From NCBI GenBank assembly GCA_965207065.1, contig OZ242260.1, positions 1,408,001 to 1,472,000 of the forward strand: a stretch of DNA of 64,000 nucleotides, in the 5' to 3' direction. The stretch comes from a bacterium (GTDB taxonomy: Bacteria; UBA8248). Positions 1,445-21,150 of the stretch are shown piece after piece. The notes beneath the pieces are model-generated. The model made no database searches, was not told where the DNA came from, and saw only the letters and a program-made list of their open reading frames with translations. The first letter of the stretch is position 1. Each line of letters starts with the position of its first letter. The translations under genes were made by a program, and so were the position numbers.

Positions 1445-1531
1445 GGGTGTCTCCTATATGCCGGTCAATTCATGAAGAATCTACCAGTTGAATTGATAAT
1501 TCCCCTCCGGAACCACTCCCTTGGGCTTCTC

Positions 1532-2872: not shown

Positions 2873-2875
2873 GGC

Positions 2876-5986: not shown

Positions 5987-6043
5987 CAAAATCGTTACAT
6001 AAGAGGTTGTGTTGAACATCTAACAATTCAAAGGGGTGTAGTC

Positions 6044-6295
6044 ATGAGAAGTGGCGATGAAATGTTGAAACAGATTGTCGATAAGTCCGCCTTGGACGCA
6101 GATTTCAGGCAACAGCTGCTCGCAGACCCGAAATCGACCATCAGTCAGGAATTGGGCATCACGATCCCTGATTCGATGAATGTCGTGGTCCATGAGAGCG
6201 ACATGGAGACGGTGCATCTTGCGTTGCCCCCGGATCCGCATATCACCGAGGAGCAACTCGAAGCCGTCTCGGCCGGGCTTTGCTGCTGCTGGTAA
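6044..6295 (+). CDS. srpE: Proteusin (NHLP-leader) RiPP precursor, core LCCCW
   Basis: NHLP hallmarks DADFRQQLLADPK, HLALPP, TEEQLEAVSAG (double-Gly-type site), then core LCCCW-stop, the core known for sponge-microbiome srp precursors. Confidence 0.92.
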   Translation: MRSGDEMLKQIVDKSALDADFRQQLLADPKSTISQELGITIPDSMNVVVHESDMETVHLALPPDPHITEEQLEAVSAGLCCCW

Positions 6296-6359
6296 ACCCG
6301 ATTTCCGGAGAGTAGCGGGGTCAAGACGCGGAACAATTCAAATCCGCGTAGTAAAAACG

Positions 6360-6400
6360 TAAACAACTCCTCGTCCCTATCGGGATGAGGGGTTTGTTTA
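6360..6400. terminator. Bidirectional intrinsic terminator
   Basis: AAACAACTCCTCGTCCC-TATC-GGGATGAGGGGTTTGTTT hairpin between convergent genes. Confidence 0.75.
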
Positions 6401-6418
6401 TGCCCGCTTGAGACTGAT

Positions 6419-7537
6419 TTATATGGAGACCGCTCCGGAAAGCACCATGAACACATAGGCCTTGGCCTGCTTCAACTGATTTTCGGATATGACCAGCTTG
6501 ATGTGGTGAATGCCCCGCAGCAGTACGAATTGTCCGGTTTTGGCGAACAGCGTCGTCGGTTTCGATACCCAGTCGGCAAGCGCCTCGATCTTCTCCGGAA
6601 CGACAAGTTCCTCATGTCCCAGGGCTTCCAGAAACGGGTCCCAATCGGTCAGGCCGTCGAGCCAGTAACGTGAATCTTTCGTATATCTCTGCTTGACGAT
6701 GAGCGTCAGGCCGAGCGTCGGACCGACACCCTCTTCGCGCACGTCGAGGTTCGCTCCGGTTCTCACAATTTCCGCGCGTTCCTGGAAGCGTGAAATCAAA
6801 GCGTCTACGGCCGAGAGCCGACCCGGCCAGCCGATGTTCTCGAGATACGAACAGATTTCCCCCTGCGATTTGAAGCCCATGATCGCCAGGCGGATTGTGC
6901 GTTCACGGGACGGGAATACCCCGAACGAATCCAGGCGCGTGTCTTCGGGCTGCGCCAGGTAAACCCGTTCGGCGTTTTTCCGTTCAGCGGCGCTCTTTTC
7001 CCAGCCGACGGCGGAGACGAGGGCGTCAACCACGATCCCGACATCATTCTGGAGGCCGTCGCCACCGGACAGCGTGCGCTCACCGGGCCGCAGGAAGATT
7101 CCCGGCAGCGAATTATCACTGCCCGGCGCCGAACCTACGTCATACTCCAGCATCAATTTACGTCCCACGATCTCTCGCAGAGGCGAGTCCTGGGCTTCCA
7201 TTTCCCTGAACAGCCGCCTGACCGCTCTCGCGGTCTCATCCGTCTCGTCGGTCCGCGCCAGTTCTTCGAAAAAATCGCCCGAGCGGTTTCCGCTCGCCAG
7301 CGAGACGCCGAAATCCGCCACCGGCCGGCCCTCATGCAGAGGCAGCTCGAAACCGAACGGCTGGGCGCCCATGGTGATGGGAAGCCCGCTCGCGAGTTCG
7401 AGTATGCGTCCCCATTCCCGCTCTCCGATAAGAGTCGGAGAAATCCTGCTTCGAAATTGCCCGAGCAAATCTCCCATGGTGCCGCCCTCTTCGGCGAGGC
7501 GGTCCTGGGTAAGCGCGACTGCTTCGTCGATATCCAT
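6419..7537 (-). CDS. Uncharacterised RiPP cluster protein, possible ABBA/PT-barrel prenyltransferase-like fold
   Basis: 372 aa, GGAGG RBS, directly after YcaO; periodic short beta-strand motifs FGFEL, ADFGV, MLEYD, GIFL, RLAI, HHIKLV, AKAY. Gene is solid, function is inference. Confidence 0.7.
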   Translation of the reverse strand: MDIDEAVALTQDRLAEEGGTMGDLLGQFRSRISPTLIGEREWGRILELASGLPITMGAQPFGFELPLHEGRPVADFGVSLASGNRSGDFFEELARTDETDETARAVRRLFREMEAQDSPLREIVGRKLMLEYDVGSAPGSDNSLPGIFLRPGERTLSGGDGLQNDVGIVVDALVSAVGWEKSAAERKNAERVYLAQPEDTRLDSFGVFPSRERTIRLAIMGFKSQGEICSYLENIGWPGRLSAVDALISRFQERAEIVRTGANLDVREEGVGPTLGLTLIVKQRYTKDSRYWLDGLTDWDPFLEALGHEELVVPEKIEALADWVSKPTTLFAKTGQFVLLRGIHHIKLVISENQLKQAKAYVFMVLSGAVSI

Positions 7538-7546
7538 GTTGCCTCC

Positions 7547-9865
7547 TTACGCGATTACAGGCGCGGGGTTCAAATCGGCTTCGGCCAGGGGGTGCTTGCG
7601 GCGGCCCATGTCGAGGGGTGCGTCGTACAGGCGCCCGGGCGCGAATCTCGCCCAGAAATGGCGCATGCCCGGTACGATGACCCGCGCAACCGGCATGCCG
7701 ATGTCCGGCCGGGTCTGGTCCAGCACGAGGAACTCCATGCCCTTGGCTTCCACCAGCGCCCGGCAATGTTCCACATCCTCAAGAGTGTCCGCAGTTTCGA
7801 TCTCCGGATACTCCGGGCCTTGCCTGAGCGGCGCGTCCGGCGTCGGCGACAGCCAGGAACAATCGGCGATTCGAGCCGTCTTCCACCAGTTGAGCGCCAG
7901 CGGATCGTCGATCATGGGCCGGCCGTCGCCCCCTCCGGGACGCGGCAGCCAGGTAAGGCACTGGTTCAACTCGCAAACCGCGCGCAGGGCCGCCAGCCGC
8001 GGGTCGGCATGCGCGCCGGCGCCGTATATGATGTCCTCGGTTTCCGCGTCTAGTCTGCGCGAGAGCGCGACGAACGCGGGAATGCCGATGTCGGAAGTAA
8101 CGTCGAGCATCCACACTTCCCGCTCGTAGCGGGCGTAATAATCCGCGGCCGACGCAAGGAATTCGTCGTCGAAGCTGAGAAGATCAACCCCGGGCGCTCT
8201 CAGTTCGTTGTACCACCAGATGGCGAACGCATCGCGCTCGACCAGTTCATAGAAGCCTTGCAGGATGGCCTCCTCCAGGGTGTTCCCTGCGGCGCAGCCG
8301 TTGGAGTCGGCGATCAGTTCGGCGTCTCCGCGCTGTTCGGCGGACATGCTGTAGAGCATCGACGTCGGCAGATAGCGGTGCCGCCGCTGCGTGAACGACC
8401 ACACCGGGGTCCAGTCGATTTCGGCACCGGGTTCGAGACGCGGCGGGACGATGTTGTACGGGTGGCCTTTCGCGTTGATGCTTTCCGCGTTGTCTAGCTG
8501 GTCCTCGCTGAACAGCTGCGCATCGTTGGGATGGATCGCCCCGTCTTCCGCGGCGAAGTCGATGAACCGCTTGCGGATGCGGATCTCGTCTCCGCAACAG
8601 GCGCCCGAATAACGCTCGATCGCCTCGCAGAGGGCGCTGGCCTCGGATTGCGCCCGCGTGCTGCCCTTGCCGGCGCTCTTGCTGCGGAGGCTGCGCCTGA
8701 GCGAACTCAGGCTCCGGCTTCTCATGGCGGGATTGCTTCCGGCCCAGTAGACGTGCAGCCAGGAGTCGCTCTCATCGGTCGTGCGCGCCAGCCAGGTGAC
8801 GACGCCGCTGATCGGGCTTACCAGGTGGCGGTATTTCGCCAGTGTGGCTTCCGGCGTCACGGCCCGCGCGCCGCCGCTGTTGCGATGGACTTTGGGGCTC
8901 GCACTCAGACTCAGCGGCGCCGGCGGTCGATCCGGCCGGTAGAGCGCCTCGTCGCCACAGGCCGCACACTGCGGGCGGCGCATCACCGAATGATGCGAGC
9001 TTGCGAACGTGGCGACATTCATCGCAATCGCCTTATCGTGAATCGGGGCCGCATCGTCCAGCACCAGCCATTTGACGATCTCCGCCGCGACCAGGCCGTA
9101 CAGCGCCTCCAGCACCGCGGGCTCGGCGGCGAACGGCTTGAAGGCGGCTTCCTCACCGACAAAGCTGCGCAGGAAGTTGTGGGTCTCCTTATGGCAGCGC
9201 AGGCGGTAGGCCAGGCACTCCCGGCAGGGTCCTTGCTCATCCGCGCGGAAGACGGGGCCGAACAGCGCCTCCATGCCGCGCGGCCGCACCAGCATCCACG
9301 GCGCTCCCGCCTCGAGCCGGCGCCGATTCACGTCGGCAAGCCGTGCGTCGAGATAGTCGTCGCAGACGACAACCGTGAGCCGGGGGTCGCCGCTCGCCAC
9401 ACCGGCGCCGATTTCTGCCAGGCGCCGGGCGAGGCGGCCGTCGTCGCCTTCGACCGCGACCCGCGACTCCGCCAGCCGCCCTTCGGCCCAGCGGGGCGAT
9501 GCGCCGAGCGAGGCCCAGTAGGCCGCCCGGGGTCGGTCCATGCCGTGATCGGCGGAGACGACATAGCCCCTGGCGGAGAGCGAAACCACGGCCGCGAGAA
9601 CGTCGGCGGCGGCATGGCGGCCCTCGAGGGCGGCGGCAATCCCGGCCAGCGGGCGCCGGCCGCCCAGAAGCGGCAGCAGAGCGGGATACAGGCCGCCGTG
9701 CAGCAGCGTATCGAACGACTCGGACACCAGCAGGGTCTGCCCTTCGCCGATTTCGTGGAACTGCAGGTGCGGGGTGAGCGCGGGGAACTCGACGAGGCCC
9801 TGGTCCGCCGGGGTCGTTTTGGTCAATATCCCGCGTCGGGGAGTCGTCTTGGTCTGTGGTGACAT
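7547..9865 (-). CDS. srpC: Fused TOMM cyclodehydratase (RRE/E1-like + YcaO)
   Basis: GPCRECL and RRPQCAAC in the E1-like part; YcaO motifs SAGKG, EAIERY, DSNGCAAG, ELVERDA, RAVCEL; Pro-rich C-terminus NPAPVIA. Confidence 0.93.
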   Translation of the reverse strand: MSPQTKTTPRRGILTKTTPADQGLVEFPALTPHLQFHEIGEGQTLLVSESFDTLLHGGLYPALLPLLGGRRPLAGIAAALEGRHAAADVLAAVVSLSARGYVVSADHGMDRPRAAYWASLGASPRWAEGRLAESRVAVEGDDGRLARRLAEIGAGVASGDPRLTVVVCDDYLDARLADVNRRRLEAGAPWMLVRPRGMEALFGPVFRADEQGPCRECLAYRLRCHKETHNFLRSFVGEEAAFKPFAAEPAVLEALYGLVAAEIVKWLVLDDAAPIHDKAIAMNVATFASSHHSVMRRPQCAACGDEALYRPDRPPAPLSLSASPKVHRNSGGARAVTPEATLAKYRHLVSPISGVVTWLARTTDESDSWLHVYWAGSNPAMRSRSLSSLRRSLRSKSAGKGSTRAQSEASALCEAIERYSGACCGDEIRIRKRFIDFAAEDGAIHPNDAQLFSEDQLDNAESINAKGHPYNIVPPRLEPGAEIDWTPVWSFTQRRHRYLPTSMLYSMSAEQRGDAELIADSNGCAAGNTLEEAILQGFYELVERDAFAIWWYNELRAPGVDLLSFDDEFLASAADYYARYEREVWMLDVTSDIGIPAFVALSRRLDAETEDIIYGAGAHADPRLAALRAVCELNQCLTWLPRPGGGDGRPMIDDPLALNWWKTARIADCSWLSPTPDAPLRQGPEYPEIETADTLEDVEHCRALVEAKGMEFLVLDQTRPDIGMPVARVIVPGMRHFWARFAPGRLYDAPLDMGRRKHPLAEADLNPAPVIA

Positions 9866-12261
9866 GCGGGAATCCTGCGTCTGCCCGGTCGGCGCTTTTT
9901 ATGCGCGCGAAACGAGCGTATCGATCCGGGCGGCGGCGCTGGATGCGGTCTCGGCGACCGCCGACGCCAGCGCATCGAAATCCTCCTGACCGCAAGCGTC
10001 CGCAAGGAGTGATTTGACCTTCGGCCCTGCCGCCGCCGCGTCGAATCCCTCTTCGCCGACAAGACGCATGACCCCCTGTAAGTCCCGCCACATGGCCGCG
10101 GCTTGCGCCAGCGGCTCGGCGCCGGATCGTCGAGGCCGTTTCCGGCGCGCGTCAACTGCAGGTAGCGCGCGGCCCTCTCGACATCGTCCAGCCCGCCGCG
10201 CATCCGGGCGTATGCGGGCACGCCCGTTTCGGCGGGGTCTTCGGTCCGCTCGCTCAACCGGGCGAGCAAGGATTCGTCCGCGGCGCATTCGGCCAGTATC
10301 CGGCGCCGCGCCTCCTCGTAGCGGCCGGCGACATCGGAACCGCCATACTCGAAGGCGCAACGCGCCCTGGTGAGAGCGGGAACCTCACCTGAAGTCGAAT
10401 TTCCGGAATGCCCGGCCAGCTCGGAAAGCGGCAGCGCAAGAATGGTATTCGAGCCGGGCGGGACCGGGGAGAACAACAGGCTGTCCTGCGACAGGTCGGA
10501 CAGAGCCTCTTGGAAACTACGGCACACCTGCTCGTTTTTGCCGGACCGCAGGCCGTCGTGGAGGATCAGCATATCGATTCCGACGCCGGGATATGCTTCG
10601 CGGCTGGCCAGATCGCCCAGGAGAACGGCGGCGACTCCATCCACGCTCAGCATCCCGAAGCGGTCGACATAATCCGCGACCACGGAGGCGAGCACGGTCG
10701 AGATCGACGCTTCGGCGAGATTCGAGAGCGCCGTTCTCGCTTCCGCCGGCAACAGGTTACCGCGCATCACGTGCATACCGATCTGAAACGCCTTGTCGTT
10801 CGACCAGTTTCGCACGATTTCAGCGGTTTCCCTCGCATCGGCCACCGGCAGTTCGGCGACCAGACCCTTCAATTCCCCAACGTCCATCTCGTAAGTCCAG
10901 TAGACTCTCGCCAGCCCGCGCCGCGCTATCGATTCGTATTCCTCATCCGGCCCGAACCCTTTCGGCAGGTCGAGGTCGAGGAATTCCTGGTCCTGCAGGT
11001 TGTCCAGAAGTTCCGGGTTCCGCTCAATCCGTTTCGCAAGCCTCGGGGCGGCGCCGAAGATTTCGAGTATCGCGTCGAATGCGTCGGGCCGCGCCGCGGC
11101 GATCGGGCTGTCGTAGGGGCCCCAGTCGTCAATCTCCGGATAGAAATGCTTGCGCCACTGGTCCACCAGCGGGTCCATCTTCTCGAACCAGCGCTTGGGC
11201 CGCAGCACGATGTTCATCATGTCGGCGTAGGTTCCCGGCAACTCCGGCGACTCATCGAGGCCGCTGACCTGCAGCAGCGGATACTGGCGCGACGCCACCG
11301 CATGATGGTCCGCATGGCGCTGCATATTGAAAAACATCCAGTTGCTGAACTTCCAGTCGGCGCTCCAGGAATGGCGCGGCATCGCCTTTTCCCAGCGGCC
11401 GTTGTCCAGACGGACCCGGCGCAGGCCGTAGTGTTGAAAGTAGTTGCTCATCTTCATCGAAAAGACGCAGGACAGACCGAGGAAGACGAAGACGGGAACG
11501 GCCCAGATTCCGCCCATCCAGTAAACCAGTCCGTACCAGAACGCGACGCCGACGCCGTAGCGCCAGAACGGATTGTCGTAATGCCACATGGGCAAACGCC
11601 GCCGCGCCAGGCGTTCTCTTGCGACTTCCCAGGAATGGACGAGGTTGCTGACGACTTCCTTGGGGAAATATTTCCAGAAACTTTCCCCCTTCGGAGCGGA
11701 ACCCACGTCATACGGCGTGCCGACCAGGGCATGGTGAATATAGACGTGTTCCGTGGCGTATTGCGGATAGGAGACGGTGGCGAGCAGGAATTCGCCCACC
11801 CGGCGCTCCCAGGTCGTGCGCCGGTGAATCATTTCGTGGCCGACTACGAATACGGCTTGCGCTTCCATCGTCAGGATGATCGCCAGGAGCACGCCTTCCC
11901 AGATGGAGAATTGATCCGCCGCCAGGATTTGCCACATACCGAAAATGAGCGTCGGCGGCCACAGAAACGACCACGACCAGACCGGCAGATTGTGCCAGAA
12001 CAGGCGGTGCTCCGACGTATTCGCCGGGTCCATGTTTTGTCCGTCCCGACCCAGCGCCCTATCGAGCGACCCCGCAACACTCATAAAGACGAGCGGCGGC
12101 AGCAACCACCAGCCTCCATTGTACACGCCGAGAAGAATCAGCGGAAAAACAACCAGTGGCAGATAATGCGGAAGGGCGGTCAGAATGGAAGGCTCGATAG
12201 GCCGAGTGGCGTCAGCGTTGCCTGGGCCGGAGCCACCACTTGCAACCGGACTTTGTGGCAT
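9823..12261 (-). CDS. AlkB-type membrane di-iron hydroxylase/desaturase fused to a degenerate GlnE-like domain; frameshifted near the 3' end (ancestral stop probably 9899)
   Basis: His boxes GHEMIH, EHVYIHH, NYFQHYG, QRHADHH plus TM helices; C-half resembles GlnE (LSNLAEA, LGDLASRE, RGGLDDVE..RYLQL); the last ~70 plausible residues lie in another frame ending at 9899. Confidence 0.8.
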   Translation of the reverse strand: MPQSPVASGGSGPGNADATRPIEPSILTALPHYLPLVVFPLILLGVYNGGWWLLPPLVFMSVAGSLDRALGRDGQNMDPANTSEHRLFWHNLPVWSWSFLWPPTLIFGMWQILAADQFSIWEGVLLAIILTMEAQAVFVVGHEMIHRRTTWERRVGEFLLATVSYPQYATEHVYIHHALVGTPYDVGSAPKGESFWKYFPKEVVSNLVHSWEVARERLARRRLPMWHYDNPFWRYGVGVAFWYGLVYWMGGIWAVPVFVFLGLSCVFSMKMSNYFQHYGLRRVRLDNGRWEKAMPRHSWSADWKFSNWMFFNMQRHADHHAVASRQYPLLQVSGLDESPELPGTYADMMNIVLRPKRWFEKMDPLVDQWRKHFYPEIDDWGPYDSPIAAARPDAFDAILEIFGAAPRLAKRIERNPELLDNLQDQEFLDLDLPKGFGPDEEYESIARRGLARVYWTYEMDVGELKGLVAELPVADARETAEIVRNWSNDKAFQIGMHVMRGNLLPAEARTALSNLAEASISTVLASVVADYVDRFGMLSVDGVAAVLLGDLASREAYPGVGIDMLILHDGLRSGKNEQVCRSFQEALSDLSQDSLLFSPVPPGSNTILALPLSELAGHSGNSTSGEVPALTRARCAFEYGGSDVAGRYEEARRRILAECAADESLLARLSERTEDPAETGVPAYARMRGGLDDVERAARYLQLTRAGNGLDDPAPSRWRKPRPCGGTYRGSCVLSAKRDSTRRRQGRRSNHSLRTLAVRRISMRWRRRSPRPHPAPPPGSIRSFRAHKKRRPGRRRIPACHHRPRRLPDAGY

Positions 12262-12343
12262 GTCAGCTCCTCAACAGTGGGCATATTGAAACCCTTGAAC
12301 CGGAGGCAATTTTATCCTCGAATCCATGAACCTGCAAGGATTT

Positions 12344-13645
12344 TCAGGCTTTCAGGATTGCGAGGAGACGCTCGAGGGCTTCGATGCAGAACGCGGTTGT
12401 CACGGCTTCGGAGCCATGTCCAATCCGCCCTACCGTGCCCCACTTCAGGGTTTGGTCGCCGAACGCGAGGAGTTCGGGCCAGCTGCCGTCCTCGCGTTGC
12501 GAACCCGTGAACCTTTCCACCTCGCGTTTCGCGTCGATTCTATCGAGGCATCCGACATGGTGGAGCGCCGAGGCGGCCTGAGCCGATTGAAGGATGTTGC
12601 CGAACCCCCCCTCCTCGTCCCGCAAGCCCAGGATGCGCTCCGCAAGTACCGGGCGCAGCCGGTCGAGGGCGGGCCGTGCGCGATTCACGGCGCGGGCGGT
12701 CGCATAGCAGATAGCGACCTCGTCGGGATACCATTTCGACGACCCCTCGAGATTGCCTTCGGTTATCAAGGCTTCCAGCCATCGCCGGGCATCCCTGGTT
12801 TCTGGGCAGTCGCCGAGATAGGCGATGACGTTCGCATTGACCACGGGGTCGGCTTCGATACGGAAGCGCGATACGACATCGGGTTCGTCGTCTTCGAGAA
12901 CCCAGGTCATGAAGCGGCCTTCCTCGTCGCGATTCGCCAGTATCTGCGGAACGTTCCGCCCCATCAGAATCCAGGGGTGGCCTCCAATCACGAGTGAACA
13001 CAGCGCGGTGCTGTCGAGATCCTGGGGCAGATGGCGGTAATAGCGCCACAATCCGGGATATTCGATGGTTTCGGCGAGATACGCCTCGGTCGCGGCGCAG
13101 ATGGCCCTGGCGCGCGCTTCCTCGCAACATTCCAGGGCGAGGACGCAGAAAGCCGATACGAAAGGAGGTTTCTCGAAATGCCGCGGTATGTCCGGGTCGC
13201 CTACGTTGAACCGGATGCAGCGCCAGGCGCCGTTTTCGTCTATGGCGGATTCCAGGAAATCGAGACCGCGGCGGATGCTTTCCCTGCCCGCTTTCGCAAG
13301 CGCTTCGGTGGTCGCCGCGCTCTTCGGGACTCTCTCCCCTTGAAGTTTTGGAGGACGAAGGGGCGGCGCGGGGTCGTGCATCGTTTTGCGAAGAAACTCG
13401 ATCGATGCCGCGCCGGTTTTCGCCTCCTCCCGTTCCGCCTCGGTGAATTTGCTGCGCGGCGGGAGGACGAGGTGCGTCGCGGTGTAGGTTTCTTCGTGCA
13501 CGTGAATCTCATGGTCTTCGGCCATCGTAACGCCCAATTCCGCTTCGATGGTCTCTTTGGGCCTGGCGAGAAGACGTTCTCTAAAGTCGTAGTCGCCGCC
13601 GGCTCGCGATATCAGGAAATCGGCAGCGTCAAAGGGCTTCTTCAT
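12344..13645 (-). CDS. NHLP-leader-like domain fused to a prenyltransferase/squalene-hopene-cyclase-repeat (class II terpene cyclase-like) domain
   Basis: N-term DYDFRERLLARPK..HLVLPP..TEAEREEAKTG parallels the precursor leader; C-term PQDLDSTA (DxDD-like), DPVVNANV, QREDGSW and DENGAW QW-type repeats; GGAG RBS before ATG at 13645. Confidence 0.85.
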   Translation of the reverse strand: MKKPFDAADFLISRAGGDYDFRERLLARPKETIEAELGVTMAEDHEIHVHEETYTATHLVLPPRSKFTEAEREEAKTGAASIEFLRKTMHDPAPPLRPPKLQGERVPKSAATTEALAKAGRESIRRGLDFLESAIDENGAWRCIRFNVGDPDIPRHFEKPPFVSAFCVLALECCEEARARAICAATEAYLAETIEYPGLWRYYRHLPQDLDSTALCSLVIGGHPWILMGRNVPQILANRDEEGRFMTWVLEDDEPDVVSRFRIEADPVVNANVIAYLGDCPETRDARRWLEALITEGNLEGSSKWYPDEVAICYATARAVNRARPALDRLRPVLAERILGLRDEEGGFGNILQSAQAASALHHVGCLDRIDAKREVERFTGSQREDGSWPELLAFGDQTLKWGTVGRIGHGSEAVTTAFCIEALERLLAILKA

Positions 13646-13719
13646 GGATGTCTTCTCCATTTTCGCGGGCCTTGGCCGAACGTGCATTTTACCGCCGGGC
13701 TGCTGTCTGCATATTCTGG

Positions 13720-16662
13720 TCAGGCGATTTGCCTTTTGATCAACTCCTTGAATACCCCGTCGACCTCCTTGAGTTCGTTGAAGGTACCGCTTTGAACGAC
13801 TTTTCCGCCTTGCAGCACGTAGATGCGGTCGGCCTGTTCCAGCGTGGACAGGCGGTGGGCGATGATGAGCCGGGTGGAAGTCAGGTCGGCAAGGTTCCGC
13901 ATTACCTTGGCCTGGCTTTCGTTGTCCAGCCAGTTCGTCGCCTCGTCAAGCAGCATGATTCGCGGGCTGCCGATCACCGAGCGGGCGATCGTGATGCGCT
14001 GACTCTCGCCGCCCGAGAGGACGGACCCGCTGGCGCCCACCATCGTCATCATGCCCATGGGCATGTCCCTGATTTGGGCTTCGACTTCGGCGGTCCGGGT
14101 CGCCGCCCACACTTCCTCGGTCCCCACCGCATCATGGTGGCTGACCAGATTGTCCCAGAGATCTTGTGGATGGAGTCCAACGGATTGCGGCACCGCTCCA
14201 ATTTTCCGGCGCACCTGTTTCAGATTCAGGTGCCTCAGGTCGCGTCCGTCGTAATACACCGCACCGGCGGCCGGCCAGTCGATGCCGAGCGCGAGCCGGA
14301 ACAGGGTGCTCTTGCCGGCGCCGGACTCACCGGCAATCGCGATGAATTCGCCGGGACGGGCGTGAATCGTGACGTCGTCGAGGATCAACGGACCGTCGGG
14401 ATCGTAGCGGAAGGAAATGCGGTCGAACAGTATTTCACCGCCCAGGAATTCAACCGGCTCTCCTTCCGTCACGGTTTCAGGAACGGCGGAGAGAAGCGGG
14501 CGCATCTGCTCGAACGCCGGCCGCATGGCGGCAATGGCGCCGAAGGACTCGCCGAGCCGGGCGATGGCGGACTGGAAAACGATAAAGACCGTGTAAACGA
14601 CGAGAAAATCGCCGACCGGTATGTCCCGGTCTCCCGTCGCCGCCACCGCGAAAAGCAGAACCCCGCCGGCAAAAAAGGGAAGCGCGGCGCCGAATGCCCG
14701 CGAATGTCCCTCAAGCGCGCCCAGTTCAATCTCTGCGCGTTTCTGCTCGCGATAATCCCTCGCCCAGATGGCATAGGCCGACCCTTCCGCATTATCCATT
14801 CGCAGCTTGGAGATGCCTCCCACGAGCTGGAACAGCCGACCGGCTACACGCCGCGCCGCGCTGATCATCCGCCCATAAGGTGAAATCTGGCGCAACCCGA
14901 GGACTACGGCGACCAGCAGCGAAGCCAGGCTGAAGACGAGGGTGATGAGGCCGAGGGTGGCGTCGTAGAAGAAAATGACGCCAAAAACCGGAAGCAGAAA
15001 AATAATCGACAAAAAGCTGTTGGCGACGATTCCCCGCAAGCCGTCGCGAAGGTTCTGGAACGTCATCCCCGACATTGCCAGATCTCCGGCGGGATGGCGG
15101 TGCAGAATGCTTGACGGAAGGCGCATGAGACGGTCCCAGAAGGCGGCTTCGACCCGGGAAGCCGAGCGCCCCTCGAGCCGCATCATCGCCGTGCTTTGGA
15201 ACAGTTGCAGGAGAGCGCCGAGCAGACCGAACGCCGCTAACGCCACGGCGACGGTATAGAGCGTTCCTGTGCTTCCGCCCGCTAAAATTTCATTCGCAAC
15301 GAATCCGAGCGCGAGCGCCGGCAGCAGCTTGATCATGCCGTATGGAAGCCCGGCAATGACCAGACGCGCCAAATCCGCGGCCGACCCGCGCAGGGCGATT
15401 CTTAGCAGGTCTGCCAGTTTCACGTTCTCCGGCGGCAATGGCCGATAGAACATCCAGGCTTCTCCCTCCAGCGCGCCCGCGCGGTCCGCCGTGACCCGGC
15501 GGCTGCGTTTGCTGACCGGGTCGATTTCCCGGTATCGCCCGAACATTCCCGGCAACAGCGCCACTGGCTGGCCGTCCTCGGCGCGGAACGCCAGCATCGC
15601 GTTGCTGTCGCCGCGCCACCAGCTGCCCTCGGCTTTGAACCGCACGCGCCGGGCGCGTAAGCCCGACGCATCGAGAACCTCGACGAGGCCGACCGGAGAA
15701 TCGGAAAGTCCCGCACGCGCCGGAATCTTGAAATCGATTCCTTCATGGCGGCCGATGAGTTGCAGGGCATCCGCCAGCGCCGTGTCCTCGACACTGGCGT
15801 CCCGGTCGATCGGAAGGTCATAGATGTTGAACAGCCGCTGCCGCGCGGCTTTTTCCGCCGTGCGGCGGCTGGTAGTCCGCGCGCGTTCGAGATTGACGTC
15901 ATCGACCACGACCAGTCGGCGGTTCAGGCGTTCCAGGGAAAAAGCAACCGCGTGAAAAGAGGCGAGCGCCGGCAGCAGCGTGCCTTGCTCCGCCAGGGTT
16001 TCGGTTGATAAGCCCGTCAGCGTCGCTTCGTCGAACAAGGCGAGCCAGCTTGTGCGCGTCAGCGGAATAACGGCGTCGTGCGGGCCGCTCGCCTCCGCCA
16101 GTTCCGCCGGGTCGACGATACCCATGAACAGGCTCGCGCCGCGCGGCGGTTCGGATACCCATACCACGCCGCGCCGTACGGATAGCGTACAAGGGGCCAG
16201 GGTCTGCGTCCGACCGGGTTCGGCCAGCGCGGTCGGGCGCGGAAGGGGGCTTGCGAAACGGGACAGTGTTTCAGCAATGGCGATCAGCCAGGTATCGGTC
16301 TGTTCCGCCAGTTCCGCCGGATGGACCCGGGACAGCAGGGAAGCCGGCAGACGTTTCAAAATGGTGCCCGGCAGTCCTTTGGCGATGATGCTGAGCGTAT
16401 TGTCTTCGTCACCCTCTCGCTGGTCCGGCGACACGCCCGGCAGCAGCCAGCCCGACTCCCGGCGCAGCAGATGCTGCGGCGCCGCCTGCTCCACCCCGTC
16501 CTTGAGTTCGGCGAGGAACAGATTGACGGCGCCCTGATCGATGAACCAGACGCTGTCCGGGTCGTCGAGCTTGACCGGCAGGTTGCCGGCGCAGGGTACG
16601 GACGCGCCGAAGCGAGCGGCGAGTTCGGCGATGGACGTGTATTCCGGCTTTGTGTGCTGCAT
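13720..16662 (-). CDS. NHLP-system export ABC transporter, permease/ATPase subunit
   Basis: Long N-terminal extension, TM domain, Walker A GESGAGKS, signature LSGGESQR, LLDEAT, IAHRLST; coupled to the upstream gene. Confidence 0.92.
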   Translation of the reverse strand: MQHTKPEYTSIAELAARFGASVPCAGNLPVKLDDPDSVWFIDQGAVNLFLAELKDGVEQAAPQHLLRRESGWLLPGVSPDQREGDEDNTLSIIAKGLPGTILKRLPASLLSRVHPAELAEQTDTWLIAIAETLSRFASPLPRPTALAEPGRTQTLAPCTLSVRRGVVWVSEPPRGASLFMGIVDPAELAEASGPHDAVIPLTRTSWLALFDEATLTGLSTETLAEQGTLLPALASFHAVAFSLERLNRRLVVVDDVNLERARTTSRRTAEKAARQRLFNIYDLPIDRDASVEDTALADALQLIGRHEGIDFKIPARAGLSDSPVGLVEVLDASGLRARRVRFKAEGSWWRGDSNAMLAFRAEDGQPVALLPGMFGRYREIDPVSKRSRRVTADRAGALEGEAWMFYRPLPPENVKLADLLRIALRGSAADLARLVIAGLPYGMIKLLPALALGFVANEILAGGSTGTLYTVAVALAAFGLLGALLQLFQSTAMMRLEGRSASRVEAAFWDRLMRLPSSILHRHPAGDLAMSGMTFQNLRDGLRGIVANSFLSIIFLLPVFGVIFFYDATLGLITLVFSLASLLVAVVLGLRQISPYGRMISAARRVAGRLFQLVGGISKLRMDNAEGSAYAIWARDYREQKRAEIELGALEGHSRAFGAALPFFAGGVLLFAVAATGDRDIPVGDFLVVYTVFIVFQSAIARLGESFGAIAAMRPAFEQMRPLLSAVPETVTEGEPVEFLGGEILFDRISFRYDPDGPLILDDVTIHARPGEFIAIAGESGAGKSTLFRLALGIDWPAAGAVYYDGRDLRHLNLKQVRRKIGAVPQSVGLHPQDLWDNLVSHHDAVGTEEVWAATRTAEVEAQIRDMPMGMMTMVGASGSVLSGGESQRITIARSVIGSPRIMLLDEATNWLDNESQAKVMRNLADLTSTRLIIAHRLSTLEQADRIYVLQGGKVVQSGTFNELKEVDGVFKELIKRQIA

Positions 16663-18872
16663 CAGCCCGACCTGACCAGCTTGTAGTACGCACCGTCCCG
16701 ATCCGCGATCAACTCGTCGTGGGTGCCGCGTTGCACGGTGACGCCTTTGTCGAGCACGATAATTTCATCGCAATCCCGCACGGTGCTCAGCCGGTGCGCC
16801 ACGATCAGGCAGGTGACGCCGCGCCGCCGCAGGGCTTCATCGACTAGTTCCTCCGTTACGGCATCGAGTGCGCTGGTGGCCTCGTCCAGAATGAGCACCG
16901 TCGGATTGCCCACCAGCGCACGGGCGATTTCCAGGCGTTGCTGCTGGCCGCCGCTGAAATTCGCGCCGCCTTCTTCGACGAGGGTCGAGTACCCTTGCGT
17001 TCGAAGCAGGATTTCGTCATGGATTTGGGCATCCCGTGTGGCGGCGAAGAGGACTTCATCCGGGACGGCCGGGTTCCACAACGTGATGTTGTCGCGCAGG
17101 GACGCGGAAAAGAGCACGATCTCCTGGTCCACCATGGATATGGACTGCCGCAGCACTTCCTCTGGAATCTGATCCCGCAGATGATCATCAAACAGGATTT
17201 CGCCCGACCAGGGCGGATAGACACCCGATACCAGCCGCGCCAGTGTCGACTTGCCGGAACCGCTTGGACCGACCACGGCAACGCGCTGCCCCGGCTTGAT
17301 CACGAGGTTGAAGTCCTTTATCAAAGGTGGCCGGCTCTTGTTGAAACCGAAGGTGAGGTTTCGCAGTTCGAGCTGGCCTGCAAGCTGGAGCCGACCGTTG
17401 AACGTGGGGATTGACTCCGGTTCCGGATTTCGGCGACTGAAAACGGGGTCTTCATCGGTTTTGGAGATGTCCTCGAGACGTTGCATATCGGTTTCGAGCG
17501 CCTGGCGGTTTTCGGCAAACTCCAAAAAACGCCTGACGGGGGCCAGAAACATCTCGGCCAGGATGTAGAACCCGACCAGCGTCCCCAGGGTCATTTCTCC
17601 GGTCATGACCAAACCGCCCCCGATGCCGAGAATCGCCGCGCTGCGGAGCGCGTCGACCAGCCCCGGAAGCGAGGTGCTGATGGAGCCCAGTTCGGAATAG
17701 AGCTGGCGCGCACGCAACTCACGCGCCTGTTGACCGCTCCAGCGCGAAAAGAAACGGTCATCCGATCCCGTCATGCGCAGATTGTCGGAATGACTCAGCA
17801 TCTGCATGCCGAGGCCGATCAGCAGTCCCTGCTCGCGCCTCATCGCCTGGCTTCGGACAGCCCGAAGGGCGTTGAGAAAGTGGGCTAGCATTCCGTGCAG
17901 AAGGGCCAGCAAAAGCACGATCAGCGTGAGCAGGATATCGTAGGCGAACATCGCCATGAGCAACACCACGCTCATCGCCATGTCGATAATGAGAACCAGA
18001 AACTGGTCCGCCAGATTCCTGGCGATTCTGTCGGTGGACGAGACCCGGTCGGTCAGGTCGCCCGCCAGTCTGTGTTCGAAAAACTCCACCGGCAACCGCA
18101 GCAGACGTGACACGCTGCGACTGAAGCCAATCACCGATACCCGGACGGCGAGCCGCTTGAGGAATCGGTGCTTGAACAGGGACAGGACGTATACCAGGAG
18201 GCCGCCGCCGAGCAAGGCGGTCACCAATCCGCCCCAGGATCCGTGTTTTTCGATGACATCGTCGACGAAAACACCGAGAGATGCGGGAATAATCAACGTC
18301 AATAGCGTCAGCATGAGTCCGCAGGCAATCACCCCGGTAAGCAAATTCCATGATCCGGCGAGCAGGGCGCCCAATTGCCTGAACAAGTCGGGCCGCTCGC
18401 CCCCGGGCTTGAAATCAGCGCCGCGCTTGAAGCGAAGCGCAATGCCGCTGTAGTCCTTGTAGAACTCTTCGGCGGAAATCCTGCGCCGCCCCGTGGAAGG
18501 GTCATTGAGATGGAAATGACGGCCATCGAATCCATCGAGGACGACGAAATGGCTGAATTGCCAGAACAGAATCAAAGGCAACTGCAGCATTTTCAGTTGA
18601 TCGGCGCGTGCGCTGAGCCCGCTGCATTCGAGGCCATAGTGTCGGGAGGCGCGCAAGATGCTTGCGGCGCTGCTGCCGTCCCGGCTCACCTCGCATTTTT
18701 CGCGCAATTCGGTAAGCGGCACCCATCGCCCGAAGTAGGCCAGTACGATGCCGAGACAGGCGGCGCCGCATTCCGACGCGTGCATCTGCAACAGAATCGG
18801 TGTGGTCACCTTCCGTTTCGATACGTCCGAAGAGGCCTTGTCCCCGGCGTCTTTGGAAGCGGCCGTCGGCAT
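16662..18872 (-). CDS. NHLP-system ABC transporter with N-terminal C39 peptidase
   Basis: QMHASECGAACL, HFVV, LNDP (C39 triad), GPSGSGKS, FSGGQQQR, LDEATS. Confidence 0.94.
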   Translation of the reverse strand: MPTAASKDAGDKASSDVSKRKVTTPILLQMHASECGAACLGIVLAYFGRWVPLTELREKCEVSRDGSSAASILRASRHYGLECSGLSARADQLKMLQLPLILFWQFSHFVVLDGFDGRHFHLNDPSTGRRRISAEEFYKDYSGIALRFKRGADFKPGGERPDLFRQLGALLAGSWNLLTGVIACGLMLTLLTLIIPASLGVFVDDVIEKHGSWGGLVTALLGGGLLVYVLSLFKHRFLKRLAVRVSVIGFSRSVSRLLRLPVEFFEHRLAGDLTDRVSSTDRIARNLADQFLVLIIDMAMSVVLLMAMFAYDILLTLIVLLLALLHGMLAHFLNALRAVRSQAMRREQGLLIGLGMQMLSHSDNLRMTGSDDRFFSRWSGQQARELRARQLYSELGSISTSLPGLVDALRSAAILGIGGGLVMTGEMTLGTLVGFYILAEMFLAPVRRFLEFAENRQALETDMQRLEDISKTDEDPVFSRRNPEPESIPTFNGRLQLAGQLELRNLTFGFNKSRPPLIKDFNLVIKPGQRVAVVGPSGSGKSTLARLVSGVYPPWSGEILFDDHLRDQIPEEVLRQSISMVDQEIVLFSASLRDNITLWNPAVPDEVLFAATRDAQIHDEILLRTQGYSTLVEEGGANFSGGQQQRLEIARALVGNPTVLILDEATSALDAVTEELVDEALRRRGVTCLIVAHRLSTVRDCDEIIVLDKGVTVQRGTHDELIADRDGAYYKLVRSG

Positions 18873-18873
18873 C

Positions 18874-19425
18874 TTATGATCGCCTCATTCGAAACAGCGT
18901 GATCGGAGATTGCCTGCCGAGCTCGATGACGAACCGGCATTTCCTGCCCTTCAGGGAATCCGAATCCACACTTTCTTCGAGCGCGATATCGACGCGGAGC
19001 AGGGACACCGGCGCCGCGGACTCAAACGCCGCCTGCCCCCCGGAGAAAGGCACGGCGGAAATCGCCCTGACCTTTCCGGCAAGCGCGCCTGTTTTTCCGT
19101 CCGCCGTATCCGGCTCTATCACCACCGGCATCCCGGCCTCGATACGTGGAGCGATATCGCTGTCGACCCAGACGAGGGCCCGCACGGACCGGCCGCCCCC
19201 GGGCGAGTTTTCGCCTTGCTCGACCACTACGCCGTCCACCGCGAGACTACGGGCCACGCTGCCAAAGAAGAGCCATGCACAGAGGATGCACAGAACAAGA
19301 GCGATTGCGGCGACAAGCAGACGCTCCCGCGGCGTTGAAATCGTCAGCAACCGGTCGAGTTGCTCGCGTTCTTCCTTCGCTTCGGCGACAATATTATGAA
19401 AAGAATCGAATGGATTATTGAACAC
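18874..19425 (-). CDS. Short NHLP-system secretion adaptor (HlyD/MFP-like)
   Basis: EQLDRLLTISTPR followed by a TM helix and a barrel part (GMPVVIEP, GKVRAIS, QSPI); directly upstream of the two ABC genes. Confidence 0.8.
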   Translation of the reverse strand: MFNNPFDSFHNIVAEAKEEREQLDRLLTISTPRERLLVAAIALVLCILCAWLFFGSVARSLAVDGVVVEQGENSPGGGRSVRALVWVDSDIAPRIEAGMPVVIEPDTADGKTGALAGKVRAISAVPFSGGQAAFESAAPVSLLRVDIALEESVDSDSLKGRKCRFVIELGRQSPITLFRMRRS

Positions 19426-19857
19426 GACGGCAGGGCAACCCTCTCGTTGTAATCAAGCAAGGTAAAAAAACATCATACCATCCGGTAAAAAGAAATGTAA
19501 TTCCACACAATCCGGCTCAAGAATCGTCGGCGTTTGGGAAGCAGTGGATTTCCGATGGGCGGAACAGGCCGTTCGTTTACTCGTTTTCGGAATCAGTTGC
19601 TCCGGGGAGCCGGCCACGAACCGCCCGCGCCTCTCGCGCCGCAACATTTCTCGAGGTCGCCCTCACGGCGACTGACATACAAAATCACAGGGCGGGGAAT
19701 TTTTCAACGGCCTTGTTTGGACGCCCTGCGCAGCAGGCAGACGATCTTCTCCGGTTTGCAGAACTTTCCCGTCATCCTCGGTCCAGCATTTGCGAACCCG
19801 GGGGAACCGATCCTACGGCGCGGAATCAACCTTCGTGAAACTTTACGGACCCGGCGC

Positions 19858-21150
19858 CTAGCAGCTCAGCCCCTGGGACATCTGGCAATAACTGGAGAGA
19901 GGGAAAAACGCCAACGTCCGATTCCAGTCCGATTTGTCAATGACCGACTGGTTCATCAGTTCGATCATTTCGTCGAATTTGCGGAGCGCGTCGCAATCCA
20001 CCACCTCGGGATCCACCACCTTGCGGTGTCGAGGCCAGGCGTTGTCTCGAGCGTGGCGCCAGAATCCGCTGTCGTATCTGGAGCCACAGGAATAGTGCCA
20101 ACCGACGAATAAGCCGAAGCAGAGCATGGTATTGGTGAGGAATCGATTGACCACCAGAGCATCGCGTTCGAGATATTCTACCGAACGGTTAAGGCGTAAA
20201 TGGAGAACCATCCCGACCTCTACCTGTGCGGATACGATCGCCGTTGCTTCGAGGGGTTCCATGAAGGCGGCTGCGTTGCCGATGCGAGCCACCGCGCCAT
20301 CGTACATGTGACGATGGATAAAATTGGGAAACGGAATGACGGCGCGCTGCTCGAACTCCGATACGCCATCGGTCTCGAGGAAAGCGTCGAAATCCGATTC
20401 GACTTCGTCGAGGCCGGATACGTCGCGGTTGAAGATGTACCCGTAGGATGTGTGCGCTGTAAGCGGAATAACGACTATCCAACCGTGCGGACGCGCAACC
20501 GCGCGGGTATAGGTAGGTTGCAGAAACGGGCCGTCCTGCTCTTTTTTGACGATTGCAGGGCAGCGGCGGATGACGGCCGTATTCGTGGGGATGAAAGAGA
20601 GGTCGATGTGCCGGTCCGGGTCTAGTTCTGCGGGAAAGCCCCGGGCATCAAAGACCAAATCGTAGCGTTCCGCCGGCCGGCCCTCGAATTCCACTTGCGC
20701 GCCGCCTTCCACCCTGGTGATACCGGTTACTTTCGCGTCGATGCGGCTCGCGCGCGTGCTTTCATGCAGCAGGTCCGCCATCAAGTCGACGGACAGATGG
20801 TAGGCGTAGGACACCTGTTGCGGCGTGAAATAGTGGGTGAAGTCGCGATTGCGCCGACCCCATCCCTCGAATGTTACACCGTACTTGCGCGTTCCTTTCA
20901 GGCGCTGCTGGACTGTTTCATGGGGAAGATTCGTAAGTTGACACAAATCCTGCACGAGACTCGGCCAGCTGCCTTCGCCTACTCCGAGGGCCGGGATGCG
21001 CGAATCATAGATGTGATGCAGCTCGTGGTCGCTCTCGGGTAGAAGACGAGTCACATTGGCGGCCGCAAGGGACCCTGCGGTTCCCCGCCCGACAACCGCG
21101 ATCTTCCGTAATGATTTAGCGCCCGGCTGTATCATCCTACTCACTTTCAC
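19858..21150 (-). CDS. srpI: Flavin-dependent tryptophan halogenase family, SrpI-like peptidyl brominase
   Basis: VVGRGTAG, GVGEGS, catalytic Lys region GTRKYG, GWIVVIP, IGNAAAFMEPLEAT; within an LCCCW cluster; start may be the ATG at 21135. Confidence 0.85.
   Translation of the reverse strand: MKVSRMIQPGAKSLRKIAVVGRGTAGSLAAANVTRLLPESDHELHHIYDSRIPALGVGEGSWPSLVQDLCQLTNLPHETVQQRLKGTRKYGVTFEGWGRRNRDFTHYFTPQQVSYAYHLSVDLMADLLHESTRASRIDAKVTGITRVEGGAQVEFEGRPAERYDLVFDARGFPAELDPDRHIDLSFIPTNTAVIRRCPAIVKKEQDGPFLQPTYTRAVARPHGWIVVIPLTAHTSYGYIFNRDVSGLDEVESDFDAFLETDGVSEFEQRAVIPFPNFIHRHMYDGAVARIGNAAAFMEPLEATAIVSAQVEVGMVLHLRLNRSVEYLERDALVVNRFLTNTMLCFGLFVGWHYSCGSRYDSGFWRHARDNAWPRHRKVVDPEVVDCDALRKFDEMIELMNQSVIDKSDWNRTLAFFPLSSYCQMSQGLSC

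Follow-up and report, generated by a model that had tools for sequence, protein, structure and literature searches.

The srp gene clusters (sponge-derived RiPP proteusin; RiPP, a peptide made on the ribosome and modified after translation) were reportedly first published in 2021, by Nguyen et al. in JACS. As set out in the accessible parts of the sources cited in this text, these clusters are defined by the pentapeptide core LCCCW (PMC10286304, PMC10858898, bioRxiv 10.1101/2023.06.09.544420) and belong to those natural-product loci of sponge microbiomes that have the widest spread and the highest transcription (bioRxiv 10.1101/2023.06.09.544420); SrpC forms three thiazolines and SrpI brominates the C-terminal Trp (PMC10286304, PMC10858898, PMC12615548), the bromination taking place at C6 in a leader-dependent manner on a substrate that is handled as the thiazoline form (PMC10858898, PMC10286304). 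Such proteusin clusters also hold "several genes of unknown function" (PMC11832590). A different RiPP cluster, mpp of Moorena producens, unites prenyltransferase, terpene synthase and oxygenase with an SrpI-like Trp brominase (PMC11791876). Here we describe an srp cluster in a 64,000-nt stretch of bacterial DNA (the window, whose positions are used for all cluster coordinates) and find that three genes outside the known srp chemistry are core members of such clusters; the predicted classes of their products point to a brominated peptide-terpenoid hybrid.

Positions 5927-21300 of the window are a discrete, canonical srp biosynthetic island of ~15.4 kb. When the whole window was compared by blastn with 80 related loci (selected as given below), homology ran from ~5927 to ~21300 with sharp edges, and no DNA beyond this block was common to any of the 80; the closest locus, L001, has 88% DNA identity across 13.9 kb, with similarity that stops exactly at 5927. 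The cluster shares with other srp clusters an NHLP precursor (LCCCW, ITEEQL), a fused E1-like/YcaO protein, a halogenase whose K84, Y102 and Y110 agree with SrpI by residue number, export by a peptidase-containing ABC transporter (PCAT), the absence of an azoline oxidase, and a spread over many phyla of sponge symbionts. There is no essential difference, its own trait being a 34-bp frameshifting deletion in an AlkB-like gene; taken by itself, the window copy is ordinary: it adds to a family of clusters already known, and one of its genes is damaged. A preliminary description of this DNA had called it a complete srp-type proteusin cluster lacking a flavin mononucleotide (FMN)-dependent azoline dehydrogenase. 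The type assignment is borne out, LCCCW being the canonical srp core (PMC10286304, PMC10858898, bioRxiv 10.1101/2023.06.09.544420), every cluster element lies where that description had placed it, in coordinates that the homology block shows to be accurate, and no FMN/SagB-type dehydrogenase was found among the cluster proteins or in the 96%-complete genome; "complete" has to be withdrawn, because in this genome the oxygenase gene carries a frameshift close to its 3' end.

The conservation of the three extra genes, which encode a 372-amino acid (aa) ABBA-fold protein, a 433-aa cyclase-like protein and the AlkB-like protein, was assessed in loci anchored on the YcaO gene. Scanning one genome per GTDB species gave 380 matching stretches, 345 of which encode a YcaO relative; the best 80 of these, 73-90% identical to the window YcaO, were kept, and come from metagenome-assembled genomes (MAGs) of at least eight phyla (Nitrospinota, Alpha- and Gammaproteobacteria, Binatia, Acidobacteriota, Gemmatimonadota, Latescibacterota, Nitrospirota and Syntrophobacterales). 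A gene was scored as present by tblastn at no less than 45% identity and 70% coverage; many of the 80 loci end at contig ends, and 53 have full 10-kb flanks. Among these 53, the cyclase-like gene is present in all 53, the 372-aa gene in 49 and the AlkB-like gene in 43 (Table 1), with a median amino-acid identity of 73-74% for the three extra genes compared with 78% for YcaO. In 67 of the 72 loci with a 372-aa gene, the YcaO gene is its immediate upstream neighbour, and in several loci where the 372-aa gene falls under the thresholds it is cut at the flank edge. AlkB-like copies with 65% identity or more are in most cases found immediately upstream of the YcaO gene, those of lower identity mostly on the opposite strand, at another place in the locus. 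All three extra genes belong to the srp core and are no peculiarity of the window copy. The preliminary description had named their non-conservation across LCCCW clusters, together with the lack of a mass shift on the modified precursor, as the outcome that would speak against it, and the first of these objections falls away because they are conserved. The accessible literature assigns no function to any of the three and defines neither the mature srp product nor the role of that product, a scope outside which the founding 2021 srp paper and all supplements lie. In one alphaproteobacterial MAG the ABBA-fold gene is split in two by an insert of ~1.9 kb (L008 ~12329-15600; G051:C3:4199243-4202414).

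In the pathway that we propose, the YcaO protein (SrpC type) would convert the three Cys of LCCCW to thiazolines and the SrpI-type halogenase would brominate C6 of the C-terminal Trp in a leader-dependent manner, both being family steps taken from the literature. The ABBA-fold 372-aa enzyme would probably attach an isoprenyl group to the core Trp at its indole; the 433-aa protein would then drive cyclisation of a polyprenyl chain by protonation; and the AlkB-type di-iron membrane enzyme would hydroxylate an aliphatic C-H, most plausibly in the terpenoid part. Cleavage after SAG would fall to the C39-ABC exporter, which would act in export jointly with the short HlyD-like protein and the second ABC subunit. 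As a whole, this prediction of a small, brominated tris-thiazoline hybrid of peptide and terpenoid is the best explanation of the locus, and we give it somewhat better than an even chance. The individual steps differ in strength: protonation-driven cyclisation of a polyprenyl chain by the toroid domain is close to evenly balanced, and hydroxylation of the terpenoid part by the AlkB-type enzyme is possible, with doubt prevailing.

A sharper version, which we put forward tentatively, is that the srp product is a ribosomal peptide-meroterpenoid in which a polyprenyl group, placed on 6-bromo-Trp by a new family of leader-associated ABBA prenyltransferases, is cyclised on the peptide by the NHLP-fused monodomain class II cyclase and hydroxylated by the AlkB-type enzyme. 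If true, this would be without known precedent on two counts, as far as literature searches show: a RiPP would undergo class II terpene cyclisation, and a leader-like NHLP domain would be part of a biosynthetic enzyme. Those searches found neither a defined srp product nor a link of srp to prenylation or terpene cyclisation, the founding 2021 paper and its supplements being outside their scope, and no literature joining a nitrile hydratase-like leader with a terpene cyclase. The theme of brominase, prenyl transfer and terpene formation does have a published parallel in the mpp combination: both RiPP clusters pair an SrpI-like brominase with genes for a prenyltransferase, a terpene synthase or cyclase and an oxygenase, in srp as predicted here. 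The mpp cluster differs in having a Nif11 leader, a lanthipeptide synthetase, arginases, the core ACWRWSG and no YcaO. The "unknown extra genes" of srp clusters become in this way a concrete hypothesis, that of a lipidated, cyclised, brominated thiazoline peptide, and possible new biocatalysts come into view, namely a prenyltransferase that a leader guides to peptide Trp, and an enzyme that has a leader-like domain fused to it.

The 372-aa protein belongs to a large family that structure prediction assigns to the aromatic prenyltransferases. It has ~1000 close homologues, all without names, and a HMMER scan of 1.84 billion representatives returned 662 relatives at E <= 0.001; Pfam and NCBIfam have no family for it, and language-model Atlas clusters named Trp_DMAT and PTase_Orf2, at 0.88-0.90, served as leads only. 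An AlphaFold (AF2) model built from a 94-row alignment has a predicted local distance difference test score (pLDDT) of 95.8 and a predicted template-modelling score (pTM) of 0.93, and shows a repeated pattern of helices and strand pairs. Searched against the PDB with Foldseek, all of its top listed matches are ABBA aromatic prenyltransferases (probability 1.00, TM 0.4-0.54), among them NphB, 5- and 6-DMATS, AnaPT, AmbP1/3, EpzP, PriB, CymD and IptA. VIA-align gave 131 chains at Z >= 8, led by the indole prenyltransferase MpnD (Z 17.6, root-mean-square deviation 4.3 Å, 303 of 372 residues aligned), with Z 15-16 for FgaPT2, CdpNPT, CymD, DMATS1 and 6-DMATS and 13.5 for NphB. As modelled, the protein has the ten-strand antiparallel barrel of repeated alpha-beta-beta-alpha units that marks the ABBA fold, and we hold this fold assignment to be very probable. 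Ten residues are nearly invariant (E64, D75, D133, R211, R216, K316, H345, K347, K359 and Y361, the last seven conserved at >=90% in the 94-row alignment); they stand on or beside barrel strands, several as i/i+2 pairs, an arrangement that the lining of a diphosphate pocket would be expected to show. Compared with known ABBA prenyltransferases (MpnD, TleC, FgaPT2, CymD, 5-/6-DMATS, NphB/Orf2), the whole fold is alike (Z 17.6-13.4 over 260-311 residues); the family differs in being encoded beside NHLP precursors and in its presumed substrate, a leader-bound peptide instead of a free small molecule. The model suggests a confident prenyltransferase fold in an undescribed sequence family.

The residue that such an enzyme would prenylate is suggested by the precursors beside which the family is encoded. 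A second, minimal cassette in the same genome (G000:C1:726275-727791) consists of an NHLP precursor and, directly after it, a paralogue with 32% identity to the 372-aa protein; the C-terminal part of this precursor reads ...LSEADLNAVVAG up to the predicted cleavage site and SGSMLDLASAWNSLNQNS after it, and none of the other srp genes (YcaO, halogenase, exporter) is present in the 20-kb locus, L081. The cassette is shared by 15 further genomes of the genus, NAWN being an invariant motif. Among 51 genomes of the phylum, the 372-aa family is confined to the window's genus, where 15 of 22 other genomes have it. Of the 30 family loci in this one genus, all but L099 and L109 (28 loci) have an NHLP-type open reading frame (ORF) at a distance of at most 1.5 kb, and all 30 such NHLP-type ORFs have a Trp past the predicted cleavage site. 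Their cores are of four types, LCCCW/LSCCW, ..(A/V/I)NAWN.., ..HEDGTPWV and ..DMDWCTSSGAV; the extra types come from one genus only, because in five genomes of other phyla the srp-type copy alone was found. Since Trp is the sole nucleophilic side chain common to all four, we propose that the modelled enzyme prenylates the core Trp, the same residue that SrpI brominates in srp, a proposal that we slightly favour.

The 433-aa protein appears to combine a leader-like domain with a toroid. Its listed ORF (12344-13687) would encode 447 aa; the start most likely lies at 13645, giving the same 433 aa as in homologues. Residues ~11-85 match the NHLP model TIGR03793 with an E-value of 6.5e-11, under the cut-off, and the PDB matches of this N-terminal domain are nitrile hydratase alpha chains and the NHLP structure 8tb1; a complex prediction of the YcaO protein with aa 1-95 (score 0.00, mark 0.32) was uninformative on docking. 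The remaining ~330 aa are predicted to form an alpha/alpha toroid, (alpha/alpha)6. All 19 family members examined match PF13243 (SQHop_cyclase_C) at E <= 1, the best at 1.9e-06, while 9 of the 19 match the Prenyltrans repeat PF00432 and 4 match SQHop_cyclase_N; a QW-type hairpin, SQREDGSWPE, aligns with squalene-hopene cyclase and with an oxidosqualene-cyclase-like protein of the same genome, and the Atlas places the protein among "prenyltransferase/squalene oxidase repeat" clusters at 0.94. With a structure model of pLDDT 53 as the query, the first 34 listed Foldseek rows are all class II terpene cyclases except one untitled Actinoplanes protein, the matches including drimenol synthase AsDMS (E 4e-4, ~20% identity), drimenyl-diphosphate synthases, MstE, squalene-hopene cyclase and small squalene-hopene-cyclase-like proteins of myxobacteria; on the same model VIA gave Z 14.3-12.2 for cyclases.

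In class II terpene cyclases the proton is supplied by an acidic motif of the DxDD or DxDTT type. The 433-aa family has D209-L-D211-S-T (DLDST) invariant in 19 sequences, which, by arithmetic on aligned ranges only, comes to lie no more than ~10 residues from the positions mutated in the PDB entries of AsDMS (D333) and MstE (D109). Compared with MstE and the drimenol and drimenyl-diphosphate synthases (AsDMS, SsDMS), the toroid is alike in size, ~330 aa, and these are its best fold matches (Z 13-14.3, Foldseek E 4e-4 to 5e-2, on the pLDDT-53 model), with a DxD(S/T)T-like motif near the matching position that reads DLDST and not DxDD or DxDTT; MstE and AsDMS differ in having no fusion to an NHLP-leader-like domain. 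MstE, from Scytonema and the merosterolic acid pathway, acts on a polyprenyl chain joined to an aromatic ring, and provides an analogy for the srp proposal. The chances are roughly even that the 433-aa protein represents a class II cyclase of the monodomain kind with a leader-like domain fused to it. A LanC-like or protein-prenyltransferase-beta toroid was considered and set aside, farnesyltransferase and geranylgeranyltransferase (GGTase) beta chains being far down the Foldseek list (E 0.12-0.17), which is weak evidence.

The oxidosqualene-cyclase-like protein of the same genome is encoded ~65 kb past the right end of the window (L112 1372-3954, minus strand); it has 860 aa, PF13243 at E 1.6e-53, the motif VSDCTAQ and an N-terminal extension, and adjoins an ORF that is P450-like by sequence appearance alone. 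This region may be a sterol-type pathway.

The third extra gene very probably encodes an AlkB-type oxygenase, as judged by family matches and motifs. Its 812-aa ORF matches PF00487 (E 4.4e-26, 92.6 bits, cut-off 29.7), and for the intact 798-aa homologue in L001 two solved structures of AlkB are matched, 8f6t with E 1e-45 over aa 52-377 and 8sbb with E 1.1e-33. The histidine boxes of the AlkB/desaturase group are HExxH, EHxxxHH, NYxxHYG and xRHxDHH; each of HEMIHR, EHxxxHH, NYxQHYG and QRHADHH is kept without exception across 25 homologues of the adjacent type and 12 of the divergent type. The C-terminal ~420 aa match GlnE weakly (PF03710, E 7.6e-06, 25.9 bits, cut-off 24; 3k7d at E 0.28 with the intact homologue), and this domain is perhaps non-catalytic and substrate-recruiting. 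Relative to AlkB alkane 1-monooxygenases (8f6t, 8sbb), all His boxes and NYxxHYG are kept and the match extends over aa 50-377; the window enzyme differs in being fused to this degenerate GlnE-like domain of ~420 aa instead of to rubredoxin, in being encoded in a RiPP cluster, and in belonging to a genome where no rubredoxin was found.

The preliminary description had read the three proteins as a prenyltransferase, a cyclase and an oxygenase that together give a prenylated, cyclised and oxidised product. The ABBA fold (pLDDT 95.8, Foldseek probability 1.00, Z 17.6) upholds the first assignment and the AlkB match (8f6t, E 1e-45, invariant His boxes) the last; the second survives as a class-II-terpene-cyclase resemblance that rests on a pLDDT-53 model and Pfam matches below cut-off. 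For the product, the enzyme classes hold at the level of fold and family, whereas the chemistry goes beyond such resemblance.

Several observations weigh against the peptide-terpenoid reading. The 372-aa protein has only 8-13% sequence identity to its structural matches, its family profile matches no PDB sequence (E <= 10), and none of 94 aligned family members has a Pfam match, including to Trp_DMAT (PF11991) and PTase_Orf2 (PF11468). The Trp argument comes to four core types in one genus, with observations that are interrelated; four is the honest count, because the genomes are related to each other, and other ABBA peptide prenyltransferases modify Tyr, Ser/Thr or peptide termini. For the 433-aa protein, PF13243 scores 17.8 bits, under the cut-off of 26.1, hhalign of its family against the oxidosqualene-cyclase-like protein recovers one 43-column hairpin at 21% probability, the structure model, from a 19-row alignment, is poor (pLDDT 53), and unrelated alpha/alpha barrels (epimerases, GH76) follow close behind the cyclases at Z ~12; in addition, a class II cyclase requires a chain of at least C10. 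The GlnE-like domain of the oxygenase is poorly conserved and its nucleotidyltransferase Asp motif is lost; rubredoxin (PF00301) was not found in the 96%-complete single-contig genome, with a control search positive in 7 of 14 genomes; the AlkB-like gene is absent within 10 kb in 10 of the 53 full-flank loci; and in this genome it is frameshifted by a 34-bp deletion relative to L001-L004.

The 34 bp are missing between two copies of a 12-nt repeat; the frame is lost after ...DDPAPS, leaving the last ~100 codons out of frame. A remnant in frame 1 (...AEPLAQAAAMWRDLQGVMRLVGEEGFD...TLVSRA, then the stop) matches the C-terminus of the L001 protein, and the conserved C-terminal ~70 codons survive in another frame. 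Logan contigs of run X1, in which 0.98 of the sampled words were present and which is possibly the source sample, span 8859-10807 in the deleted form with 0 differences, and contigs of X3 and X8, from other studies, have 22 extra letters and a 12-nt overlap at this site, the intact form. Hence the deletion can be reproduced from the data closest to this genome; close relatives keep an intact gene. The AlkB domain is untouched by the deletion. The final oxygenation step may be impaired in this genome, as the gene is frameshifted near its 3' end.

One alternative is that srp clusters carry out only the known chemistry, giving a tris-thiazoline 6-bromo-Trp pentapeptide, and that the three extra genes leave the peptide unmodified and have other roles, for instance in self-protection, in binding or chaperoning the product, in modifying membrane lipids or in handling the leader. 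Cyclodehydration and bromination are the only srp steps demonstrated in the accessible parts of the literature (PMC10286304, PMC10858898), and the same caveats that count against a terpenoid product fit this alternative: the C-terminal domain of the AlkB-like protein looks non-catalytic, no rubredoxin partner was found in the genome, the toroid is indistinguishable from other alpha/alpha barrels by structure alone, and the AlkB-like gene is broken here and lacking within 10 kb in those 10 of 53 loci. It is harder to reconcile with the 372-aa and 433-aa genes being tied more tightly to YcaO (49/53 and 53/53) than the halogenase is (31/53), with the position of the 372-aa gene directly after the YcaO gene in 67 of 72 loci, with the two-gene cassette that a 372-aa paralogue makes with another NHLP precursor, and with the NHLP-like domain that ties the 433-aa protein to the leader system. 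To our knowledge, moreover, the ABBA barrel is almost exclusively a prenyltransferase fold. We regard this alternative as unlikely, and favour the brominated peptide-terpenoid hybrid.

Single genes of the hybrid pathway could also be read differently. The AlkB-like enzyme might substitute for the FMN azoline dehydrogenase, converting thiazolines to thiazoles, or might hydroxylate or desaturate the Leu side chain and not the terpenoid part; the desaturase/AlkB superfamily does both hydroxylation and dehydrogenation. No nitroreductase/SagB domain was found among the cluster proteins (Pfam, NCBIfam), and the 4.48-Mb, 96%-complete, single-contig genome gave 0 TIGR03605 matches for a SagB-type dehydrogenase, which would leave this role vacant; srp products are also spelled "azol(in)e" in the accessible literature. 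We know of no precedent for azoline oxidation by this superfamily, none turned up in literature searches made for other questions, and clusters with no AlkB-like gene within 10 kb exist (10/53). With the SrpI substrate treated as a thiazoline in the literature (PMC10858898, PMC10286304), we find this reading quite improbable. Still a little less probable is that the 433-aa protein is a second, protein-sized "precursor" whose leader is cut by the C39 peptidase, so that the toroid is exported to act or bind outside the cell. The gene lies directly upstream of the exporter genes, and the N-terminus aligns with the true leader through HLVLPP, the stretch ...HLVLPP...TEAEREEAKTG, followed by A, placing a Gly at the position of the cleavage Gly of the precursor; yet where the precursor has hydrophobic positions (I-TEEQ-L, and V at -4) the 433-aa protein has F-TEAE-R and A, and its -2 residue is Thr and not Gly, Ala or Ser. 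Both Leu of the L(X)4L motif are required for YcaO and SrpI binding (PMC12455567 section 4; PMC11791876), and the pair also contacts the LahT-type protease (PMC10858898); because these positions are altered in the 433-aa protein, it is doubtful that its NHLP-like domain is a processed leader.

Table 1. Features of the srp island and of the second cassette (window positions unless noted), with the number of YcaO-anchored loci that carry the gene.
Feature	Position	Strand	Description	Of 80 loci	Of 53 full-flank loci
Promoter of precursor gene, sigma-70-like	5957-5986	+	TTGACA-18-TAAAAT in AT-rich stretch; 11/12 matches, consensus match only		
Precursor, srpE-type	6044-6295	+	83 aa, 252 bp; NHLP leader; C-terminal core LCCCW; ends ...HLALPPDPHITEEQLEAVSAGLCCCW	67	49
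Terminator-like hairpin and T-run after precursor gene	6365-6394	+	Stem of 13 pairs, 7 of them GC; identified by pattern alone		
ABBA-fold (PT-barrel) aromatic prenyltransferase-like protein	6419-7537	-	372 aa; proposed peptide-Trp prenyltransferase	72	49
srpC-type E1-like leader-binding domain fused to YcaO cyclodehydratase	7547-9865	-	772 aa		
AlkB-type membrane di-iron monooxygenase with degenerate GlnE-like domain	9823-12261	-	812-aa ORF; monooxygenase at aa ~50-377	66 (46 at >=65% identity, 20 at 45-65%)	43
C-terminal coding remnant of AlkB-like gene	9899-10113	-	Other frame; intact-form stop at 9899-9901		
12-nt repeat at deletion junction	10114-10125	-	From alignment with L001-L004		
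Fusion of NHLP-leader-like domain and predicted toroid, cyclase-like	12344-13645	-	433 aa	77	53
ABC exporter subunit without peptidase, NHLM-type	13720-16662	-	980 aa; ABC_tran and ABC_membrane		
C39 peptidase-ABC exporter (PCAT)	16662-18872	-	736 aa; predicted cut after SAG and export		
Short HlyD-like membrane protein	18874-19425	-	183 aa		
SrpI-type flavin-dependent Trp halogenase	19858-21135	-	425 aa from ATG 21135; listed ORF (19858-21150) begins at GTG 21150	41	31
Second cassette, precursor (L081)	8192-8551 of L081; cassette at G000:C1:726191-727842 of the same genome		Core SGSMLDLASAWNSLNQNS		
Second cassette, ABBA-fold paralogue (L081)	8749-9843 of L081		Paralogue of the 372-aa protein		

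The precursor itself is typical of srp. Its leader matches the NHLP model TIGR03793 at E 2e-19 (69.2 bits, cut-off 50.9) and the NHLP leader structure 8tb1 at E 1.1e-10, its I(X)4L motif is ITEEQL, a form of the L(X)4L-type recognition motif that srp leaders show as LTEEQL or ITEEQL, and its C-terminus, ...ITEEQLEAVSAGLCCCW followed by the stop codon, is predicted to be cut after SAG, that is, between ITEEQLEAVSAG and LCCCW. Highly transcribed srp precursor genes of 252 bp with the consensus ITEEQL have been described (bioRxiv 10.1101/2023.06.09.544420, section 10), and the window gene equals both that length and that consensus. A close precursor was found in 67 of the 80 related loci, and all 67 end in SAGLCCCW (ISAG in 58, VSAG in 9). 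Promoter-like sites numbered 4, where shuffled sequences gave 1.2 on average. A second srp copy, with the variant core LSCCW, occurs in one genome of the same genus (L110; G027:C4:1531094-1535134).

The fused YcaO protein matches PF02624 (E 4.7e-91) and TIGR03604 (E 6.1e-81), and its leader-binding domain matches TIGR03882 (E 9.1e-40); by this domain content it is of the SrpC type, with a corresponding predicted activity. The halogenase, whose start is most likely the ATG at 21135, matches PF04820 at E 6.5e-44, and its nearest solved relatives are Trp halogenases (E 1.7e-24), with the Lys of ...GTRKYG... aligned to their conserved Lys. If numbering starts at Met6 of the listed ORF, this Lys becomes K84 and two Tyr become Y102 and Y110, in agreement with the SrpI residues as published (PMC10286304); the agreement is by residue numbering and not by direct sequence comparison, and the halide and site specificity are predicted. 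The halogenase gene is a separate, movable module, with a position and strand relative to the YcaO gene that differ among loci, and DNA similarity falls on either side of it (19426-19857 and 21150-21300), to 11 loci as against 41-42 over the gene.

The exporter appears to be a divergent NHLM-like set with a truncated HlyD-like part. None of its three proteins reaches the curated NCBIfam cut-off of the corresponding NHLM export model (TIGR03796, TIGR03797, TIGR03794); these models are the best matches by far, and the domain content fits, so that the set would function like that system. The C39-ABC exporter has Peptidase_C39 at E 8.1e-34 and falls just below the cut-off for TIGR03796 (E 4.7e-254, 844.9 bits, cut-off 853.3), the 980-aa ABC exporter scores 660 bits for TIGR03797 (E 4.5e-198, below the cut-off of 709.4), and the HlyD-like protein matches TIGR03794 over aa 21-72 (E 1e-09, 37.8 bits, cut-off 156.2), the match being limited to the first ~50 positions of a 421-position model. 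As the 183-aa form is kept at this short length in 61 of the 80 loci, the exporter may lack a full periplasmic adaptor.

The island and its left flank are distinct in composition, with a G+C content of 0.59-0.68 across 1-20 kb compared with ~0.50-0.52 past 28 kb. A tRNA-Ser(tga) gene at 4754-4839 on the minus strand, ~1.1 kb left of the block edge at 5927, is a possible integration landmark, and between the two (4840-5926) a convincing gene was not found. The G+C contrast and the nearby tRNA-Ser gene are consistent with horizontal spread, which has been reported for srp. In runs labelled "sponge metagenome", 0.64-0.65 of sampled words were present, with long pieces in X8 that are 95-99% alike. 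One RNA run, X18, gave contigs of 64-113 nt, 95-99% alike, on the YcaO and ABC genes, with 2 of 30 bins uncovered; this is no proof of transcription of the window copy, as DNA or the srp copies of other organisms could yield the same result.

Two neighbouring groups of genes were considered as cluster members and rejected, the regions concerned being common to 0 of the 80 loci. On the left, 1-4540 holds several long ORFs with no Pfam family, the exception being a flavin adenine dinucleotide (FAD) oxidoreductase at 59-1444 on the minus strand, which was the candidate on this side. On the right are four tandem paralogues of 338-365 aa on the plus strand (21984-23081, 23105-24139, 24181-25197 and 25233-26252); the first, second and fourth were scanned against Pfam, with no match, and the first has no NCBIfam match. 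Their N-termini resemble ...FEFFxxKPWSDGLPVxPPTEER, and they are followed by a gene of the molybdopterin xanthine-dehydrogenase family at 26424-28787 on the minus strand.

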